Positions 7,667-40,781 of a DNA stretch of 64,000 bases are shown piece by piece. Under the pieces are notes generated by a model. It ran no database searches. It had not been told where the DNA came from and worked only from the letters and a program-made list of their open reading frames with translations. The stretch is from Candidatus Saccharimonadales bacterium. Its GTDB lineage: Bacteria; Patescibacteriota; Saccharimonadia; Saccharimonadales; JANWIN01. The translations under genes were made by a program, and so were the position numbers. Where the stretch lies: positions 4,642-68,641 of the forward strand of contig JANWIN010000008.1 in assembly GCA_025449905.1 (NCBI GenBank), in the 5' to 3' direction. Position 1 is the first letter of the stretch; each line of letters begins with the position of its first letter.

Positions 7667-8503
7667 ATGGCTATAAAAGCTTATAAACCCACTACTCCAG
7701 CCAGACGCGGCATGACAACTCAGGACATGTCAACGATAACCGCTAAAAAGCCGGTTAAATCCCTACGCGTTGTTAAAAACAGAATTAACGGCCGAAACAA
7801 CCAGGGCCGCATTACCGTTCGTCATCGCGGTGGCGGAGCGCGTAAGTTCTATCGAATTGTTGATTTTAAACTGGAATCAGGGACCACGGCGGTGGTTGAG
7901 CAGATCGAATATGATCCGAACCGCAGTGCCCGAATTGCTCGCATTAAGGATGACAATAATAGCTATCACTATATTTTGGCTGGTAAGGGAATGAAAGTGG
8001 GCAAGAAAATTTCTAGTGGCGATGAATCAGCCATTGCTAGCGGCAATCGCTTACCTCTAAAGAATATTCCAGCCGGTAGCTCGATTTATGCTATTGAAAT
8101 GCAACCTGGCAAAGGCGCCCAAATTGCCAGAAGTGCCGGCGCAAGTGCTACACTTATGGGTAAAGAGGGTAAGTTTGCGCAGCTTAGGATGCCGAGCGGT
8201 GAAATTCGCTTAGTAAATTTGGACTGTACAGCTAGCTTGGGTGTGGTTGGTAACGAGCAGCACCAAAACATTAAGGTTGGCAAGGCTGGACGAACCCGTA
8301 GAAAAGGTATTCGCCCGACCGTCCGAGGTGTGGTTATGAACGCCGCAGACCACCCGCACGGTGGTGGTGACGGTGGTCGTCACGGTTCCGGTAAAGACCC
8401 ACGCACCCCTTGGGGCCAGAAGACGCTGGGCTACAAAACTCGCCGACGCAAGAATACCAATCAGTTTATTGTTAAAAGCCGACAGGCAGCAAAGAGGAGA
8501 TAG
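7667..8503 (+). CDS. rplB: 50S ribosomal protein L2 (uL2)
   Basis: RHRGGGARKFYR and NAADHPHGGGDG motifs. Confidence 0.97.
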   Translation: MAIKAYKPTTPARRGMTTQDMSTITAKKPVKSLRVVKNRINGRNNQGRITVRHRGGGARKFYRIVDFKLESGTTAVVEQIEYDPNRSARIARIKDDNNSYHYILAGKGMKVGKKISSGDESAIASGNRLPLKNIPAGSSIYAIEMQPGKGAQIARSAGASATLMGKEGKFAQLRMPSGEIRLVNLDCTASLGVVGNEQHQNIKVGKAGRTRRKGIRPTVRGVVMNAADHPHGGGDGGRHGSGKDPRTPWGQKTLGYKTRRRKNTNQFIVKSRQAAKRR

Positions 8504-34394: not shown

Positions 34395-35036
34395 GTGAGT
34401 CAAAAACAAGGTCGAGTTATTGCCTTTGACGGACCGGATGGTGTTGGTAAAAGCAGCCAATTAAAACTTTTGGCCAACTACTTATTAGGAAAGGGCTATA
34501 AGGTATTTAAAACCCGCTCGGCCGGCGGAACGCCAATAGGTGTAGCTTTAAGGGCTGCTTCGCTTTTAAACGTTCCGCGCCAACCAGAAACTGATCTTTA
34601 TATTTCCTTAGCCGGTCAAACTGATGTTGGCTACCAAATTAAGAACCGTAAAAGTACAGGCGAGATTATTCTAGTGGACCGTAGCCCTTTAACAATTATT
34701 GCCTATCAAGTTTTTGCCAGTAATCTACCAATACCAAAACAGGGCTACGACGCCTGTGAAAAAATGTTAAAGTTATGGAGTATTGACGACCTAATAGTTT
34801 TTGATGCTCCAGAGTCTATACTTAAGGGCCGCCGCGACAAGCGAAAGCAGGAAGATAAATCAGCTGCCAACAACTATTTTGAACGGCAAAACGACAATTA
34901 TCACAAGCAAACCCAAGCTGGTTACCGTGAAGCGACTAAATTTGCTCAAAAACTTGGTGTTAATACTGTCAAGATTGATGCTTCGCCTACGATTGATATA
35001 ATTCAGGATGACATCCGAAATAAGCTGGGACTTTAG
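34395..35036 (+). CDS. tmk: thymidylate kinase (paralog 1)
   Basis: VIAFDGPDGVGKSSQ P-loop, DRSPLTIIAYQ; GTG start. Confidence 0.8.
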   Translation: MSQKQGRVIAFDGPDGVGKSSQLKLLANYLLGKGYKVFKTRSAGGTPIGVALRAASLLNVPRQPETDLYISLAGQTDVGYQIKNRKSTGEIILVDRSPLTIIAYQVFASNLPIPKQGYDACEKMLKLWSIDDLIVFDAPESILKGRRDKRKQEDKSAANNYFERQNDNYHKQTQAGYREATKFAQKLGVNTVKIDASPTIDIIQDDIRNKLGL

Positions 35037-35096
35037 ACTCGTTGTAATATCTGCGGGAGGCCTTGAATAGTTTTCAAGTTATTACGTACAATATAT

Positions 35097-35822
35097 TTGA
35101 GCGAGGTATTTTTGGGAGTTTATAGCAATACACAAATTAGACAAGCAATTAAAGAAGGTCATATCGTCCTTCACCCTTACAATGACAAAAACATTGCCGG
35201 TAGTAGCGTTGACGTTACCCTAGGCTATTATTTCTATCGTTTGGAGCGGCCAAGTGAGGGCGGTTTTTATAATCCATTTGATGAAAAAGCTGTTAAATCA
35301 TACTTTCGCGGTGGACCATACCACGCCGAGCCGCATGAGAAATGGGTTAAGCAACATGGCCGGCAATTATTTAAGAATATCCCGCCAAAACATCCAATCA
35401 TTGTCTTAAGGCCAGGCGAGCGCATACTTAGTCATACTCATGAATTTATAGGCATTCGAGCCCCCGGCACTAGCACTATGCAAGCCCGCAGTACCTGGGG
35501 TCGCAACGGCGTCTCGGTTTGTTTAGACGCCGGGTGGGGTGATCCTGGTTATATAAACCGCTGGACGATGGAAGTTTATAATATGAACCAATATGAAAGC
35601 GTTGTACTGCCTGTTGGTGAACGAGTCGCGCAAATGGTCTTCTACGAAACAGGCCCCGTTAGCAGCGAGTACACCAAGCTAAGCGGCAAATATCAGAGCC
35701 GCCCCAGCCAGGATCTGCAAACCATTATTAAGACTTGGTCGCCGGAACAGATGCTCCCCCGAGCTTACAAAGATAGTCGCCAGATGCCTAAAATCATCAA
35801 AGGCTTGAAAGGCTACAAGTGA
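35097..35822 (+). CDS. dcd: dCTP deaminase / dUTPase-superfamily protein
   Basis: GSSVDVTLG and an ERVAQMVF-type C-terminal segment. Start uncertain: TTG 35097, or TTG 35112 which has GAGG 5 nt upstream. Confidence 0.7.
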   Translation: MSEVFLGVYSNTQIRQAIKEGHIVLHPYNDKNIAGSSVDVTLGYYFYRLERPSEGGFYNPFDEKAVKSYFRGGPYHAEPHEKWVKQHGRQLFKNIPPKHPIIVLRPGERILSHTHEFIGIRAPGTSTMQARSTWGRNGVSVCLDAGWGDPGYINRWTMEVYNMNQYESVVLPVGERVAQMVFYETGPVSSEYTKLSGKYQSRPSQDLQTIIKTWSPEQMLPRAYKDSRQMPKIIKGLKGYK

Positions 35823-38167
35823 AACCGGCAAGTAAGAGTAGGGGTGCATTTATTGTTATTGAAGGTACTGATGGCTCGGGCAAAGGTACGCAATTTGAAT
35901 TATTGACCGAAAGGTTACGCCAAGCCGGACACCAAGTAGAGACTTTTGATTTTCCTCGTTATGATGAGCCTTCCAGCTACTTTGTGAAGGAGTACTTAAA
36001 TGGTAAATACGGCAGTTCGGAAGAGGTTGGACCTTATACCGGTTCGCTATTTTACGCGATTGACCGCTACCAAGCCGCACCGCAAATCAGGCAGGCGCTA
36101 GAAGAAGGCAAGGTTGTGCTGGCTAATCGTTTTACCGGTTCAAATATGGCTCATCAGGGTACTAAGTTTGCTTATCCTGAAGAGCGGCGCGGTTATTTTA
36201 TCTGGCTGGATAATTTGGAGTTTGAAATGCTGGGAATCCCGCGGCCGGACAGGAGTTTTGTGCTGCGCGTGCCAGCCGAGATTGCCCAGCAATTAATTGA
36301 TAGAAAGGCCGCCCGCAGTTATACCGATAAGAAGCGTGACTTGCACGAGGCTGATTTTAAGCACTTAAAGCTTTCAGTTGAGGTTTATGACGACCTATGC
36401 CGATTATTCCCGCGTGATTTTCAGCGCCTTGACTGTGTGCGCAGCGGAAAAATGATGACTAAAAGCGTAGTTGCCGACATGATTTGGAAAAATGTCGAGC
36501 CGTTGTTACCCGAGCCGATGCCTATTACCAAAGGAACTAAACCCAAGCCGCAGGTTGAAAAGCCAAAAAATCCTTATATTCACAAGACGAACGCCGGCTA
36601 CGAAATAACTTCGGAGGGTAAGCGCTTTTTGGAAGAAGCCGTAACTAATGCCAGTGGTAATGTCTATGGTTTTAAGGACAAGTTGACGGCTACAACCATA
36701 GCAGCAGCTATGGCGCGATTGAGTCGCCGCGGTGATGATATGCGCGTAACTATTTTGGACGAGTTTGCCGCCACCGAAGGCAAAGATGAAAAGCTGCTCC
36801 AGCGGGTTATAACGGCTTATGGTGATGACTCTGTTCAACAGTTGGTTGGCCAGCATATAGTTGTTGAGAACGCCTCTAACCTGCTTATAAAGAAACTGGA
36901 GTGGGGCAGGCTGGCCGCCTATCTGGAACAATCGACGCGCTACATTTATTTCGATCAAAAAGATAACGAAGGACGATACAAATATCATATCCCGGAGCAT
37001 TTTGACGAAGATACACTCCAAGTCTATGTCAAAGTCATGGATGAAATCTTTGACACTTATTCAGTTATTGTCAGAAAGGCTACAGACTATGTGCGTACTA
37101 ACTCTAAAGTTCCAAAAGATGAGCAAGATGTTGCCTGGCAAGGGGCGACTCGGGCCCAAGCTTGTGACGCCGCTCGCCATGTTCTGCCCGTAGCCACCAC
37201 TGCCACCGTGGGTATTTATGCTTCAGGCCAAGCTCTAGAAAGTCTTATCATGCACCTAATGAGCGAAGAGTTCGTTGAAGCTCGTATAACCGGACAGAAA
37301 CTCTTAGACGAAGGTCGGCAAATGATTCCAATGTTCTTGGAGCGAGCCGATAAGCCGGATCGCGGCGGCGCAGCCATTGCTTATCGAGCCAACACCAAAC
37401 AAGGCGTAAAAAAATTAGCCGAGAAATATTTACCTAATAATTTTGGTCAGCATGAAGCGCCGGTTAGGCTAACAGGCGTCTGGCCTCGCAACGAAGTGGA
37501 CTTAGTGCCAGATATGCTCTATGAGCACAGTAATTTATCGTTAGACGAGATTAAGGATTCAGTTAGTAAATGGTCATATGATAAAAAAGCTTCGGTGCTG
37601 CTGGCCTATATCGGTGAACGCTTAAACCGGCGCCACAAGCCCGGGCGAGCACTAGAAAAAGCCCATTACAGCTGGGATTTGGTTTGTGATTACGGCATCT
37701 TTCGAGATTTACAACGTCACCGCATGGTTGATGATTTAGAGTGGCAGGAGTTAACCCCTCGCTATGGCTATGAAATACCAGAGCTTATTGAAGAAGCCGG
37801 GCTAGCTGAATTATATGAAAAGTGCTTTGACATGAGCTTGGCGCTTCATAGCAAGTTACAGGCAGCTGGCTACGGGGTTGAGGCGCAATACGCTACGCTT
37901 TTGGGGCATAAAATGCGGTGGAAAATGACTTTTAATGCCCGCGAGGCATATCATTTTGTTGAACTTAGGACTTCGCCGCAGGGACACCCTGGCTACCGCA
38001 AACTAACTCAACAAATGTATGAAAAGTTAGCAGAAGTACATCCGCTACTTGCTCAGGGTATGAAGTTTGTCAATCAAGGCGAAGACGAAGAATTAACGCG
38101 TTTGGCGGCTGAAAAGTATACACAGTTTAAGCTTCAACAGATTGATCAGGCTGAGAAGAAACGCTAG
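35819..38167 (+). CDS. fusion protein: thymidylate kinase (N-terminal) plus tandem ThyX-like flavin-dependent thymidylate synthase domains
   Basis: N-terminus FIVIEGTDGSGKGTQ (Tmk). C-terminal ~550 aa carries two ThyX-like halves: WGRLAAYLEQSTRY and QRHRMVDD...TPRY, and YHFVELRTSPQGHPGYR. GTGA overlap with dcd. Confidence 0.6.
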   Translation: MKPASKSRGAFIVIEGTDGSGKGTQFELLTERLRQAGHQVETFDFPRYDEPSSYFVKEYLNGKYGSSEEVGPYTGSLFYAIDRYQAAPQIRQALEEGKVVLANRFTGSNMAHQGTKFAYPEERRGYFIWLDNLEFEMLGIPRPDRSFVLRVPAEIAQQLIDRKAARSYTDKKRDLHEADFKHLKLSVEVYDDLCRLFPRDFQRLDCVRSGKMMTKSVVADMIWKNVEPLLPEPMPITKGTKPKPQVEKPKNPYIHKTNAGYEITSEGKRFLEEAVTNASGNVYGFKDKLTATTIAAAMARLSRRGDDMRVTILDEFAATEGKDEKLLQRVITAYGDDSVQQLVGQHIVVENASNLLIKKLEWGRLAAYLEQSTRYIYFDQKDNEGRYKYHIPEHFDEDTLQVYVKVMDEIFDTYSVIVRKATDYVRTNSKVPKDEQDVAWQGATRAQACDAARHVLPVATTATVGIYASGQALESLIMHLMSEEFVEARITGQKLLDEGRQMIPMFLERADKPDRGGAAIAYRANTKQGVKKLAEKYLPNNFGQHEAPVRLTGVWPRNEVDLVPDMLYEHSNLSLDEIKDSVSKWSYDKKASVLLAYIGERLNRRHKPGRALEKAHYSWDLVCDYGIFRDLQRHRMVDDLEWQELTPRYGYEIPELIEEAGLAELYEKCFDMSLALHSKLQAAGYGVEAQYATLLGHKMRWKMTFNAREAYHFVELRTSPQGHPGYRKLTQQMYEKLAEVHPLLAQGMKFVNQGEDEELTRLAAEKYTQFKLQQIDQAEKKR

Positions 38168-38351
38168 ATTGAGGTGAATTTACCTCTTGATCGAGGTCAA
38201 TTAATCGAGATTTTCCAGATGCAAACTCTCCTAATAATAAGTTCCTCGAGCTAGCTTCAGCGTGCACGCTCGCAAGTTCTTCAGCTATTCCTGTTTGCTT
38301 ATCATCTCTGTGTGTTAAGTCTATTTCTGTGACTGCCATAACTCTTACCAA
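38127..38351 (-). CDS. hypothetical protein (74 aa), doubtful
   Basis: Convergent ORF overlapping the 3' end of the tmk-thyX fusion by 41 nt; no motif. Confidence 0.2.
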   Translation of the reverse strand: MVRVMAVTEIDLTHRDDKQTGIAEELASVHAEASSRNLLLGEFASGKSRLIDLDQEVNSPQSSVSSQPDQSVEA

Positions 38352-38422
38352 AAACTAATACTACACCGAATTTTTAAGAACGCAAGCAATAGTTTTTGAA
38401 TATTGTATTTTTCAGTCAAGAG

Positions 38423-38574
38423 TGATAACCTCTAAATCACTATGGGTTTTAACCAGAAGCACTCTTCGAGTCTCCTACTTATCCTTCAAGGGCTGTGCTT
38501 CAAATTGGTTGAAGCCTGAGCGTACAGATACGTTTTGCACAGCCCCACAATCAGGCCTCAACGCCTGATTTTTT
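38423..38574 (+). promoter_or_regulatory. Leu-rich leader peptide attenuator candidate
   Basis: TGaTAACCT (38423-31). ORF 38442-38519 MGFNQKHSSSLLLILQGLCFKLVEA. Alternative pairings 38490-98/38537-45 and 38514-19/38551-56, then a terminator. Confidence 0.6.
38551..38574 (+). terminator. intrinsic terminator 17 nt upstream of the leuA-family start
   Basis: TCAGGC / ctcaac / GCCTGA followed by T6. Confidence 0.7.
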
Positions 38575-38591
38575 AATTTAAGGAGAACTAA

Positions 38592-39761
38592 ATGAGTGAA
38601 GTTAATCTAACAATTTTTGATACAACCTTGCGTGATGGAGCACAATCGTTGCCTGAGCAAAATCAGTTTCCGAAAGGAACAAAGGCTGATATTGCCGGTG
38701 AAATAGCTGCTTTGGGCATAGGTGTCATAGAAGCAGGATTCCCTAGAACAGTTGGCGATGCAGACGAAGTACGTATGGTGTCTAAGCTAGTGGGTAACAA
38801 TGAATATGCTATTTCTGAATGGCGCAATAACCACGCTGTTGGCAAGGTAGGCGCTACCCCAACTATTGCGGGGCTTTGCCGAACAACCCGCAGGGACATT
38901 GATGTGGCCTGGGAGGCTGTACAGGATGCTATATTCCCGCGAATTCACACATTCGTGTCGACAGATAGAGAGCACATGGCAGCAAAATTTCCGGGCAAAA
39001 CACCAGAAGAAGTACACCTAATGGGTCGAGATGCAGTTATGCACGCCAAATCATTGATGATTGACAGGCCCCAAGCAACAGTGGAATTTTCGGCAGAGGC
39101 GGCTAGTACCACAGAAGAAAAATACTTAGAAGGAGTAATGAAGTCAGCTGTTGATGAAGGAGCTGATGTAATTAATGTACCCGACACCGTTGGCCAGCGT
39201 AATCCATTCTGGATGCGTGATTTCTATAGTCGAGTAATTGATTGGGTAGTAAGGGCAAATCCTGATGTAACAATTTCAGCTCATAACCACAACGATCTAG
39301 CTATGGCAACTGCCAATAGTTTTAGCTTGGTTAGTGCAGCTGCCGAATACGCCAAAATACAAGCTAAGCCAATAAATATTCAAATAGAAACTACTATTTC
39401 TGGTCTGGGTGAACGAGCTGGGAATGCTGATGTCTTCTCAGTTGCAGCCAGTATTTTTAAATTTGCCGAAGATCTCCCAGTTGATATTTATTGGCGTTTT
39501 AACCCTGAAAGATCTGTAAAAACCGCCAATCGCGTACTAAGTATGGCTGGTATCGAGGTCCACAGGCAAGCTCCGGTTGTTGGCCGAGATACGCTAGTAC
39601 ACCGTTCTGGAATTCATAGTGATGGTGTCATAAAAGGGGGTCATCGTATATACACCCCCCATGACCCAACCTTCTGGGGCCAAGGCGCCGATGCTATACA
39701 CGAAGAAGGTAGGTATCAGGGTAAGAGTGGACGAGCAGCCATTGCCCGAACATCCCAATAG
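38592..39761 (+). CDS. short 2-isopropylmalate / citramalate / homocitrate synthase family protein (HMGL-like)
   Basis: DTTLRDGAQS, HNHNDLAMATANS, GLGERAGNADV, HRSGIHSDGVIK. 389 aa with no LeuA C-terminal regulatory domain; strong SD aaggag. Confidence 0.8.
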   Translation: MSEVNLTIFDTTLRDGAQSLPEQNQFPKGTKADIAGEIAALGIGVIEAGFPRTVGDADEVRMVSKLVGNNEYAISEWRNNHAVGKVGATPTIAGLCRTTRRDIDVAWEAVQDAIFPRIHTFVSTDREHMAAKFPGKTPEEVHLMGRDAVMHAKSLMIDRPQATVEFSAEAASTTEEKYLEGVMKSAVDEGADVINVPDTVGQRNPFWMRDFYSRVIDWVVRANPDVTISAHNHNDLAMATANSFSLVSAAAEYAKIQAKPINIQIETTISGLGERAGNADVFSVAASIFKFAEDLPVDIYWRFNPERSVKTANRVLSMAGIEVHRQAPVVGRDTLVHRSGIHSDGVIKGGHRIYTPHDPTFWGQGADAIHEEGRYQGKSGRAAIARTSQ

Positions 39762-39762
39762 C

Positions 39763-39897
39763 TTGACATACCCCTATAGATATTTAAAATACTATCTATG
39801 GCTCAAACAACAATTATTAAAATTATTCGAGATTCCGTCTAGCGCGGTAGAGCTTTTATTTGTCAACAAACAGCTCCGCGCAGGGGCTGTTTTAAAT
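39763..39897 (+). promoter_or_regulatory. Thr/Ile-rich leader peptide attenuator candidate
   Basis: TTGACA (39763-68), 16-nt spacer, TAAAAT (39785-90), 7 nt, then ORF 39798-39842 MAQTTIIKIIRDSV. Mutually exclusive hairpins 39842-81 and 39868-92. Confidence 0.5.
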
Positions 39898-39909
39898 ATG
39901 AGGAGGACG

Positions 39910-40137
39910 ATGGAAGGTCAAATAAGCGAACCTGTTTCTAGCCAAGAACCAATAGTAGACCCTGAAGTCTATAGGCTACTTGAAATTGGTGAAAAACTTA
40001 AAGCCTTTGGCCTATTAAGTCGAGAGATAAGACTTGAGCTTATACACGGTGCGCCTTGTGGCGAACAATGGAGTGTCAGGCTAATGCGCTGGTACCCGAA
40101 ACCAACGGTTGACGAAACATCTGAATCTAATCTATAA
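39910..40137 (+). CDS. hypothetical protein (75 aa)
   Basis: ATG 39910 preceded by AGGAGG at 4 nt. The longer ORF-track frame (39661) runs through the leuA-family 3' end and the leader region. Confidence 0.45.
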   Translation: MEGQISEPVSSQEPIVDPEVYRLLEIGEKLKAFGLLSREIRLELIHGAPCGEQWSVRLMRWYPKPTVDETSESNL

Positions 40138-40139
40138 TA

Positions 40140-40234
40140 TACTGGTTACCAGAGACAGTGGCGGCGAAAGCTTAATTATGCCACCGAGGTAGAAACAACT
40201 TTTCTATGTCTTTGGTATGCGCCAAAGATTTTTT
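40140..40234 (+). promoter_or_regulatory. rplJ (L10) leader-like structured 5' region with terminator-type hairpin
   Basis: GTGGC...GCCAC helix (40159-40185). TCTTTGG/tatgcg/CCAAAGA plus T6 (40209-40234), 16 nt before the rplJ ATG. L10-leader autoregulation is known in other bacteria. Confidence 0.45.
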
Positions 40235-40250
40235 AATTTTAAGAGGTAAG

Positions 40251-40781
40251 ATGGCTTTAACGAAAGAAAAAAAGCAAGAAATTATCGAGCAGGTTGCGAG
40301 CTATCTCGATAATACTAAGATGACTGTAATGGCTCACTATGATGGTGTATCGGTTCAGGCTATGCAGGATCTGCGTCGTCAAATTAAAGATTCAGGGACT
40401 AGCGTAAGGGTCATCAAGAATAACCTGTTTGTCAAAGCCCTGGATAAAAACGACAAATTTAAGGACATTGAACGCAAAGTCATTGAAGGACAGCTGTTGT
40501 TTGCCTTTAATCCTGATGACGAGGTTGCTCCGGCTCAAGCCCTGGCCGGTTTTGCTAAAAGTGGTCAAAAAGTTGACTTTGTCGGTGCTATTACAGAAGA
40601 GGGCCAATTTGTTGAGGCTGAAGACGTCAAGTCAATGGCCAACCTACCGTCCAAAGAGCAACTGCGCGGCCAATTGGTTGGCCTATTTAGTTCACCGCTC
40701 AGCGGTTTGGTAAGTGTCTTAAACGGTAATGCCCGAGGTGTTTTGCAGGTACTGCAAGCTCGCGCTGAATCGATAAGCTAA
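40251..40781 (+). CDS. rplJ: 50S ribosomal protein L10 (uL10)
   Basis: MALTKEKKQEIIEQV... is the canonical N-terminus; SD aagagg. The ORF-track start 40206 is rejected. Confidence 0.94.
   Translation: MALTKEKKQEIIEQVASYLDNTKMTVMAHYDGVSVQAMQDLRRQIKDSGTSVRVIKNNLFVKALDKNDKFKDIERKVIEGQLLFAFNPDDEVAPAQALAGFAKSGQKVDFVGAITEEGQFVEAEDVKSMANLPSKEQLRGQLVGLFSSPLSGLVSVLNGNARGVLQVLQARAESIS

Follow-up and report, generated by a model that had tools for sequence, protein, structure and literature searches.

The enterobacterial leuL leader (RF00512, Leu_leader) acts on leuABCD through a short open reading frame (ORF) of 28 codons in which leucine codons rare in the genome form a run, an intrinsic terminator just before leuA, and alternative helices that use the 5' arm of this terminator. 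Among the codons of leuL in Escherichia coli is also CTA, a rare leucine codon in this species. In Corynebacterium glutamicum, a leader peptide upstream of leuA has been reported (PMC3890552). The actinobacterial LEU element has an upstream ORF with a leucine run right before leuA, and a pseudoknot-type fold was proposed for it (PMC1262725). In mycobacteria, leaderless poly-Cys short ORFs attenuate cysteine operons (bioRxiv 10.1101/834739). Saccharibacteria and other bacteria in the Candidate Phyla Radiation (CPR) are described as being without de novo amino acid synthesis, and the known hosts of cultivated Saccharibacteria are Actinobacteria (PMC7427843). Our literature searches on Saccharibacteria, Patescibacteria or CPR yielded nothing relevant on attenuators, leader peptides, or leuA and isopropylmalate. 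Here we analyze an element in a stretch of 64,000 nucleotides (nt) of the Saccharibacterium Candidatus Saccharimonadales bacterium (assembly GCA_025449905.1, contig JANWIN010000008.1), hereafter called the window. The element (approximately 38403-38591) precedes a gene for a LeuA-family protein of 389 amino acids (aa; 38592-39761), both on the plus strand, and is probably a leader-peptide transcription attenuator that couples this gene to the supply of charged tRNA-Leu.

The locus shares several traits with leuL: a run of genomically rare leucine codons in a short ORF (25 codons in the window), an intrinsic terminator just before the regulated gene, and alternative helices using the 5' arm of the terminator. 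The original prediction, made from the nucleotide sequence, had recognized leuL-type attenuation logic in this arrangement, and conservation, coding signature and covarying helices in relatives now support it. However, the two leaders have no homology in sequence or structure (cmscan returned nothing for Leu_leader at E = 10). The Saccharibacterial mini-ORF differs further in being without a Shine-Dalgarno (SD) sequence and apparently leaderless, its run of 3+1 codons leads into a conserved three-way junction that holds the antiterminator strand, and its target is a single gene, not leuABCD. The LEU element resembles the Saccharibacterial leader in its ORF position and in the proposed pseudoknot, which for our element would arise in the read-through fold discussed below. 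No obvious terminator is present in the LEU element (PMC1262725), whereas a terminator is universal in the Saccharibacterial leaders, and the base stem formed there by the leucine run and the SD (PMC1262725) is not conserved here. Identity with the LEU element was consequently rejected, as the duplex of leucine run and SD averages -10.7 kcal/mol against -8.9 kcal/mol for shuffled sequences and is confined to a few lineages. The mycobacterial cys ORFs offer a parallel for a leaderless mini-ORF at the 5' end of a transcript whose cognate codon run controls biosynthetic genes. They serve another amino acid, and comparative analysis found no conserved terminator hairpins for them (PMC1262725), in contrast to the explicit pair of intrinsic terminator and antiterminator in the Saccharibacterial leader.

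A gathering-threshold search of the whole window against Rfam identified no leader, T-box or riboswitch family at the leucine element. Searched at E <= 10, the region 38150-38650 gave four weak unrelated matches, the best being freshwater-2 with 19 bits (gathering threshold 49.9), and no tRNA or tmRNA was found in the leader region. The element is a probable attenuator of known leuL-type logic that lies outside every curated Rfam family. What distinguishes it is the phylum, the apparently leaderless mini-ORF, an antiterminator that is likely to be pseudoknotted, and a leader that persists in front of differing enzymes.

Leader distribution, mini-ORF and leucine codons

The element was compared in 22 independent leaders. 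Twenty of these precede orthologues of the gene for the 389-aa protein (short-form leaders, aligned as A2), and two, L042 and L173, precede genes for full-length LeuA. The orthologous loci were taken from genome contigs (L001-L010) or retrieved by exact-protein look-up (L161-L171). All 21 leaders examined in addition to that of the window carry the same arrangement. Relatives of the 389-aa protein are annotated as Candidatus Saccharibacteria or Saccharimonadales, and a profile scan of metagenomes with the protein alignment found only distant LeuA of other phyla, with no orthologues among the matches listed. A regular expression describing the leucine run and the helix P1 (see below) was applied to 173 sequences (1.07 Mb); its matches were confined to these leader loci, including L042, and there were none in approximately 148 leuA loci from other phyla. 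The leader DNA has a mean column identity of about 62% across the short-form leaders, and the P1, P2 and antiterminator sequences of L042 and L173 are the same as in these. The element in the window is far beyond what chance would produce.

Direct reading of the sequence and the list of ORFs agreed with the original prediction on a mini-ORF of 25 codons at 38442-38519 (plus strand), which encodes MGFNQKHSSSLLLILQGLCFKLVEA and contains six leucine codons, and on a run of Leu-Leu-Leu-Ile-Leu (CTC CTA CTT ATC CTT) at 38472-38486. An ATG-initiated ORF in the same frame is present in each of the 20 short-form leaders as well as in L042 and L173, and mini-ORF and leucine run are kept in 22 of 22 leaders. 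Across the 20 orthologous upstream regions its length is 15-29 codons. The number of codons ahead of the run is nearly fixed (9-11), the residues themselves being variable, and the run follows a common layout of CTN CTN CTN NNN CTN NNN, directly succeeded by GGG, CGG or AGG and then CTG TGC. Leucine occupies the four positions of the L-L-L-x-L motif in 18, 18, 20 and 19 of the 20 leaders, respectively. At the first leucine codon, the entropies of codon positions 1, 2 and 3 are 0.75, 0.00 and 1.85 bits, and at the second they are 0.29, 0.29 and 1.73 bits. Since the third position is free while the first two hardly vary, the run appears to be selected for its amino acid, and this coding signature is not that of synonymous-frame noise.

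The choice among leucine codons is also peculiar. CTC accounts for 41% of the leucine codons in the leader runs but for 4.7% in the 20 downstream genes (chi-square p = 3.5e-21), and TTA and TTG together for 1% vs 44%. CTC is the rarest leucine codon, and it is the one favored in the run; its share in the large ORFs of the window is 4.6%. The codons following the run are constrained in a different manner. In GGG CTG TGC, which lies within P1, all three codon positions are fixed, and exchanges between glycine and arginine preserve base pairing; this argues that the constraint on these codons acts at the RNA level. The spacing between run and P1 is invariant, without a single indel in alignment A2. 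In addition, 15 of 20 leaders have AGY or GGY as the codon between the third and fourth leucine, and TCN never occurs there. This preference indicates another RNA constraint, probably a small helix CAGCC:GGCUG that would rival P1 when the run is free of ribosomes. The window is without this option, its codon at this place being ATC.

Upstream of the mini-ORF, a putative promoter (TTGTAT, 17-nt spacer, TAACCT; 38403-38431, plus strand) ends 10 nt before the leader ATG. The best pairs of -35 and -10 boxes in 19 other leaders match the consensus at 6-11 of 12 positions, and in most leaders the -10 box of such a sigma-70-like promoter ends 6-10 nt (range 3-15) before the ATG. No SD-like motif occurs in the 16 nt before the leader ATG in any of 20 leaders; the main genes mostly have one. 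The proximity of the -10 box to the ATG and the consistent lack of an SD suggest that the mini-ORF is leaderless or nearly so.

RNA helices, terminator and antiterminator

Folding of 38400-38600 gave a structure more stable than dinucleotide shuffles of the same region (z = -3.8). RNAalifold, run on a MAFFT alignment of the leaders, recovered P1 alone because P3 and the terminator were misaligned, and these two were hence counted in each sequence separately.

The first of the pairing segments, region 1 (38443-38474, plus strand), comprises N-terminal codons of the mini-ORF and forms the 5' strand of a "protector" helix with 38490-38518. In the window this duplex reaches -28.3 kcal/mol, compared to -13.9 kcal/mol for shuffles (z = -4.6), and L007, L008 and L010 each have complementary bases peculiar to their own sequence. 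The next helix, P1, begins 18 nt downstream of the first nucleotide of leucine codon 1 and joins GGGCTGTGC (38490-38498) to its perfect 9-bp complement GCACAGCCC (38537-38545). This pairing was part of the original prediction, and the relatives conserve it with covariation: 95.6% of its cells are paired across 20 sequences, with compensatory changes at three pairs. The 3' strand lies 35-50 nt past the 5' strand layout in the 20 leaders, and in L010 it overlaps the 5' arm of the terminator by 4 nt. Enclosed by P1 are two hairpins. P2 is weak (TTCAA, loop ATTGG, TTGAA; 38499-38513; 92.9% paired, mean -3.6 kcal/mol) and shares its 3' arm with the antiterminator. P3 (38518-38535) has a different sequence in every relative, but is predicted in 20 of 20 leaders with a mean z of -3.3 vs shuffles, a mean energy of -5.7 kcal/mol and 3-5 pair types per stem position.

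The intrinsic terminator at 38549-38574 (plus strand) consists of AATCAGGC, the loop CTCAAC, GCCTGATT and six T residues. The hairpin of TCAGGC (38551-38556) and GCCTGA (38563-38568) followed by T6 (38569-38574) had been noticed previously, and the terminator scan extends its stem to 38549-38570 (8 bp, four of them G-C). The gene begins 17 nt after the T-run with an ATG at 38592 that is preceded by the SD AAGGAG (38580-38585); this spacing, too, is as first described, and an SD-like motif is found ahead of the main gene in most relatives. All leaders possess a terminator of hairpin and T-run with a mean of -11.5 kcal/mol, although of diverse sequence. Depending on the lineage, its 3' arm uses different registers of the conserved CAGGCTTCA (CAGGC vs GGCTTC). 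Therefore, CAGGCTTCA seems to be conserved for more than the formation of the terminator, a further argument for the competing helix described next.

A second copy of GCCTGA, at 38514-38519 across the stop codon of the mini-ORF, had led to the proposal of a helix competing with the terminator. Such a helix exists in the predicted structures and is longer than the hexamer: GTTGAAGCCTGA (38508-38519), which comprises the 3' arm of P2 and the stop codon TGA (38517-38519), can pair with 38551-38562, so that the terminator 5' arm and loop double as the 3' strand of the antiterminator (consensus TCAGGCTTCAAC). In the window, 11 of 12 positions pair, with -15.9 kcal/mol against -7.6 kcal/mol for shuffled controls, and the mean over 20 leaders is -16.7 vs -6.2 kcal/mol. 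The antiterminator thereby exceeds P2 by about 13 kcal/mol. It is 86.8% paired in the relatives, where it covaries with both sides changed in 10 cells at five pairs. None of 500 shuffles matched its percentage of pairing, its number of cells changed on both sides or its covariation score, and slid controls did not surpass 49%. In 13 of 22 leaders, the antiterminator strand ends with the stop codon of the mini-ORF, and in eight this codon follows 9-12 nt later; it is hence found in or just after the strand in 21 of 22.

Switching model and competing explanations

From these parts and their conservation we infer the translation of the mini-ORF, its leaderless start, a P1 that coexists with the antiterminator, and the sign of the switch, the last with somewhat less confidence than the attenuation mechanism as a whole. 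Transcription would start at or just before the leader ATG, and translation of the mini-ORF would accordingly be leaderless. If leucine is plentiful, the ribosome would reach the stop codon at 38517-38519 and cover the antiterminator strand, whereupon the terminator could form and transcription would end ahead of the gene. Without a ribosome, the N-terminal codons would pair with 38490-38518 and sequester the antiterminator strand, again permitting termination. If charged tRNA-Leu is scarce, however, the ribosome would stall on 38472-38486, thereby covering region 1 and freeing the sequence from 38490 on. P1 would form, the antiterminator (38508-38519 with 38551-38562) would displace the weak P2, and with the terminator blocked the gene would be transcribed. 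Provided that a ribosome protects about 12 nt past the first base of the A-site codon, one positioned on leucine codons 1-3 would end exactly where P1 begins. The antiterminated state would be a pseudoknot composed of P1 and the antiterminator.

The minimum-energy fold of the free RNA keeps the terminator in 20 of 21 leaders, the exception being L169 (terminator probability 0.04). Three states were emulated at full-length equilibrium, the stalled one with the P1 strands withdrawn as if paired, a procedure that ignores pseudoknot penalties and steric limits; median terminator probabilities obtained in this manner are 0.95 for free RNA, 0.95 with a ribosome at the stop codon and 0.16 when the ribosome occupies the run and P1 is formed. 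The corresponding values for the window are 0.96, 0.96 and 0.36. The coexistence of P1 and antiterminator is suggested by the emulated switch, which works with P1 formed, and by the energetic advantage of the antiterminator over P2. P1 is thus more likely a part of the read-through fold than a helix for the ribosome to melt, and the overlap in L010 points in the same direction, since P1 must oppose termination there. We had also considered P1 as an anti-antiterminator that the ribosome melts, but set this aside because a ribosome on leucine codons 1-3 reaches only the first base of P1, as well as for the behavior of L010 and of the emulated switch.

Several observations weigh against the scheme. 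Firstly, the predicted read-through depends on the pseudoknot of P1 and antiterminator, which nested folding is unable to represent. Nested folding with a ribosome on the first three leucine codons instead gives a junction of P1, P2 and P3 with a terminator probability of 0.97, and the antiterminator probability dips to 0.29-0.42 at mask ends -6 to 0. Moreover, the window has a linker of just 5 nt from P1 to the 3' strand of the antiterminator, and in other leaders its length is 5-14 nt. Secondly, in full-length equilibrium folds the terminator of 13 of 21 leaders withstands all ribosome masks, and that of eight is lost. This test was dropped, however, because the validated leuL leader of E. 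coli K-12 likewise keeps its terminator under every mask, and the test is thus without power. Thirdly, individual parts are weak in places: the promoter of the window matches the consensus at only 6 of 12 positions, significance (z < -2) of the region 1 helix is limited to 10 of 20 leaders, the run of L168 reads L-R-L-G-L, and the ORF of L005 terminates just ahead of P1. Finally, the whole case is computational, and the remainder of the leucine pathway was seen near none of the gene copies.

The nested folds also form the basis for a switch of the opposite sign. Here, the stalled ribosome would release P1 from the N-terminal codons and from the CAGCC within the run, the junction of P1, P2 and P3 would lock away the antiterminator strand, and termination would ensue; read-through would occur when leucine is plentiful or the RNA is free of ribosomes, and the gene would be leucine-induced. 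The mask ends with the lowest antiterminator probability indeed correspond to a ribosome on leucine codons 1-3, the preference for AGY or GGY over TCN after the third leucine fits a CAGCC:GGCUG helix that rivals P1, and the HMGL-like superfamily includes catabolic lyases in addition to synthases such as LeuA. Yet with the antiterminator strand covered by a ribosome at the stop codon, the leucine-replete state would terminate as well and no regulated difference would result. The overlap of P1 with the terminator in L010 and the strength of the antiterminator relative to P2 speak against this sign too, and the same leader controls the canonical, biosynthetic LeuA in two loci, known leucine-codon attenuators of such genes being induced by starvation (PMC1262725). 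We therefore see a slim chance for a leucine-induced switch.

It is very unlikely that the three-way junction itself is the sensor, be it a riboswitch or an element that binds a protein, the terminator being the expression platform and the ORF incidental or secondary. The compact junction with its nearly invariant 9-bp closing stem just before a terminator does resemble many riboswitches, and the actinobacterial LEU element was proposed to bind a protein, mutations of its leucine codons having little effect (PMC1262725). In the Saccharibacterial leaders, however, the leucine codons are kept as amino acids with free third positions, and the leader ATG stands at a fixed distance from the promoter in relatives. 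Beyond the antiterminator strand we saw no conserved unpaired stretch that could serve as a ligand pocket; P3 and the linkers vary freely, and no Rfam family matched.

Hardly credible is an ordinary gene for a hydrophobic peptide (LLLSLxGLCF..EA) with its own terminator and a separately promoted LeuA-family gene behind it. Such a gene would account for the well-conserved C-terminal half of the peptide and for a terminator directly 3' of the ORF, but not for C-terminal codons that are fixed at synonymous positions too and change residue (such as glycine vs arginine) where pairing permits, which again points to an RNA constraint. Furthermore, the ORF of L005 is without the C-terminal half, the 17 nt between T-run and gene start leave no space for a promoter, the antiterminator covaries, and the element always stands beside a LeuA-family gene in at least seven different neighborhoods. 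Translational control of the LEU-element type, in which the pyrimidine-rich leucine run would pair with the SD of the gene until translation of the mini-ORF opens this pairing, is highly implausible: AGUCUCCU does pair with AAGGAGAACU in the minimum-energy fold of the window, L001, L170 and L163 show strong pairing and the Actinobacteria provide a precedent (PMC1262725), but the duplex is barely better than in shuffled sequences over the 20 leaders (values above), L002 and L003 retain leucine and lose the complementarity, and the conserved terminator and antiterminator would go unexplained.

Regulated enzymes, gene neighborhoods and a second leader

The protein encoded behind the leader of the window (38592-39761, plus strand) consists of a catalytic domain only. 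Its sole Pfam match is HMGL-like (residues 6-288, E = 1.5e-43), without the LeuA_dimer domain, and it falls below every NCBIfam cut-off; the best models are those of 2-isopropylmalate synthase (IPMS; NF002086, 239.8 bits vs a cut-off of 532). The description of a 389-aa LeuA-family enzyme devoid of the regulatory domain is thus accurate. Its closest solved structures are IPMS as well. In an alignment of 32 sequences, no variation occurs at R14, D15, H231, H233, H337, S339 and H342, and hardly any at G340 and I341. These positions form the motifs RD, HxH and H-x-S-G-I-H, which, going by IPMS structures, we take to be the catalytic residues of Claisen-condensing HMGL-like enzymes. The last 40 or so residues of the short protein are conserved in the family, but lie outside the Pfam match. 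At least 120 clusters at 90% identity are related to the protein, with identities of 54-70%. The long yeast-type family to which actinobacterial LeuA belongs matches it weakly (TIGR00970, 40 bits).

The leader can be tied to the control of leuA because it also precedes bona fide IPMS in two other Saccharibacteria. The gene in L042 (796-2373) encodes a canonical IPMS of 525 aa that scores 603 bits with NF002086 (cut-off 532) and contains LeuA_dimer, and its leader (631-795) encodes MVEITRKQLQLLLSLTGLCFSMVEA. L173, a metagenome-assembled genome of Saccharimonadales, has a canonical LeuA of 522 aa, also with LeuA_dimer, behind a leader (7837-8000) that encodes MVSNLKQLLDLLLLSLKGLCFSMIEA and forms the same helices. 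Both canonical proteins are only about 34% identical to the short protein of the window. The element is accordingly a leuA leader serving two very different LeuA-family genes. With LeuA, the short enzyme has in common the HMGL-like barrel for catalysis, the conserved columns of the catalytic motifs and its best matches among families and structures, and it differs from LeuA by the low identity, the missing LeuA_dimer domain and scores below the equivalog cut-offs. As the canonical enzyme is found behind the same leader, an IPMS-like, leucine-related role would be the simplest reading for the short form.

In a separate observation, the canonical Saccharibacterial LeuA (L042 as query) has a small group of close relatives with 59-74% identity, whose taxa are partly unassignable. 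Beyond these, its identity with the LeuA of two families of Actinomycetota, Thermoleophilaceae and Solirubrobacteraceae, is about 55-57%. Transfer of the canonical gene between the Actinomycetota, the phylum of the known hosts, and Saccharibacteria is possible, judging from these identities.

The short gene occurs in at least seven different neighborhoods, and the upstream element therefore accompanies the gene whatever its surroundings. No leuB, leuC or leuD was found within 3-4 kb of any copy of the short gene, nor was leuBCD present within 8 kb of the canonical gene of L173 or of a gene on the P0123 contig whose product is 71% identical to that of L042; the contig of L042 itself is 2.8 kb long. 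The absence of leuBCD near the regulated gene had been noted in the original prediction, and an indirect test upheld it for all 64 kb of the window: when the ORFs of this stretch were compared by tblastn with the neighborhoods of 149 other leuA loci, no leuBCD-like neighbor was found, and apart from the LeuA-family gene the matches were limited to CysS, S4, a histidine kinase and the ribosomal proteins L1, L10, L11 and L7/L12. In L165 (4001-7082), a gene for RidA follows 10 nt after the short gene and is overlapped by one for threonine dehydratase of the biosynthetic type with a regulatory C-terminal domain. The three genes appear to form one operon, in which case all would be under the leucine leader, and the arrangement may point to a connection with 2-oxobutyrate and branched-chain metabolism.

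A conserved leucine-codon attenuator suggests that classical attenuation, and with it coupled transcription and translation, operates in Saccharibacteria. Although host-dependent, these organisms probably still adjust a LeuA-family gene to the leucine supply. The leader connects a widespread short enzyme to leucine status, turns the biochemistry of this enzyme and the exchange of branched-chain metabolites between epibiont and host into concrete questions, and is an evolutionary case of leader DNA that is conserved in front of dissimilar enzyme forms. One might go further and regard the leader as an ancestral Saccharibacterial leucine sensor that was long kept while its enzyme was replaced by a truncated LeuA paralogue without feedback domain, the antiterminated pseudoknot being set by a ribosome on the leaderless mini-ORF; we consider this extended scenario doubtful, though not far-fetched. 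If it were true, epibionts held to lack all amino acid biosynthesis would still monitor the charging of tRNA-Leu and answer with the synthesis of a 2-alkylmalate, be it 2-isopropylmalate or a related compound. With no leuBCD seen nearby, this compound might enter a pathway that the host shares or completes. It might also have a different role, for instance together with threonine dehydratase (IlvA) and RidA as in the operon of L165.

Directly 3' of the LeuA-family gene, the window contains a second leader-peptide attenuator (39763-40137). It comprises a promoter (TTGACA-16-TAAAAT; 39763-39790), an SD-less and apparently leaderless, isoleucine-rich mini-ORF encoding MAQTTIIKIIRDSV (39798-39842) and a terminator (CAGCTCC-GCGCA-GGGGCTG followed by TTTT; 39871-39893), and GCGCGGTAGAGC is complementary to GCTCCGCGC, the latter overlapping the terminator. 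Behind it, an ORF of 75 aa begins with an ATG at 39910 that is preceded by GAGGAGG. Four syntenic loci share this spacer, and all of them keep the isoleucine-rich mini-ORF and the terminator; the peptides there read MAQIIVTGIIISVAVRV (L161), MAQIIINRIIISSTNVRA (L162), MTRSMIVKIIDNPLTRD (L167) and MTHKNIISKVIFLPATAR (L170), each followed by a stop codon, a hairpin with T-run and a poorly conserved protein. The proteins behind the second leader have no significant match in Pfam. This neighbor lends independent support to the attenuation reading of the leucine leader and suggests that such control is used repeatedly in these small genomes.

Further downstream, Rfam identifies a ribosomal protein L10 leader at 40131-40251 (66 bits vs gathering 44) that includes a terminator-like hairpin at 40208-40234. 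Therefore, rplJ probably starts at 40251 rather than at 40206. Upstream of the leucine leader lies a nucleotide-metabolism cluster (34395-38167). It consists of genes for a thymidylate kinase (34395-35036) and a dCTP deaminase-like protein (35097-35822) as well as one whose 782-aa product combines a thymidylate kinase domain and ThyX (35819-38167). This fusion is conserved in L161, L162, L165, L167 and L170. A 74-aa ORF on the minus strand (38127-38351), for which no family matches were found, runs divergently to the leader and shares 41 nt with the end of the fusion gene. In the syntenic loci, its place is taken by an unannotated minus-strand gene of 81-174 aa.

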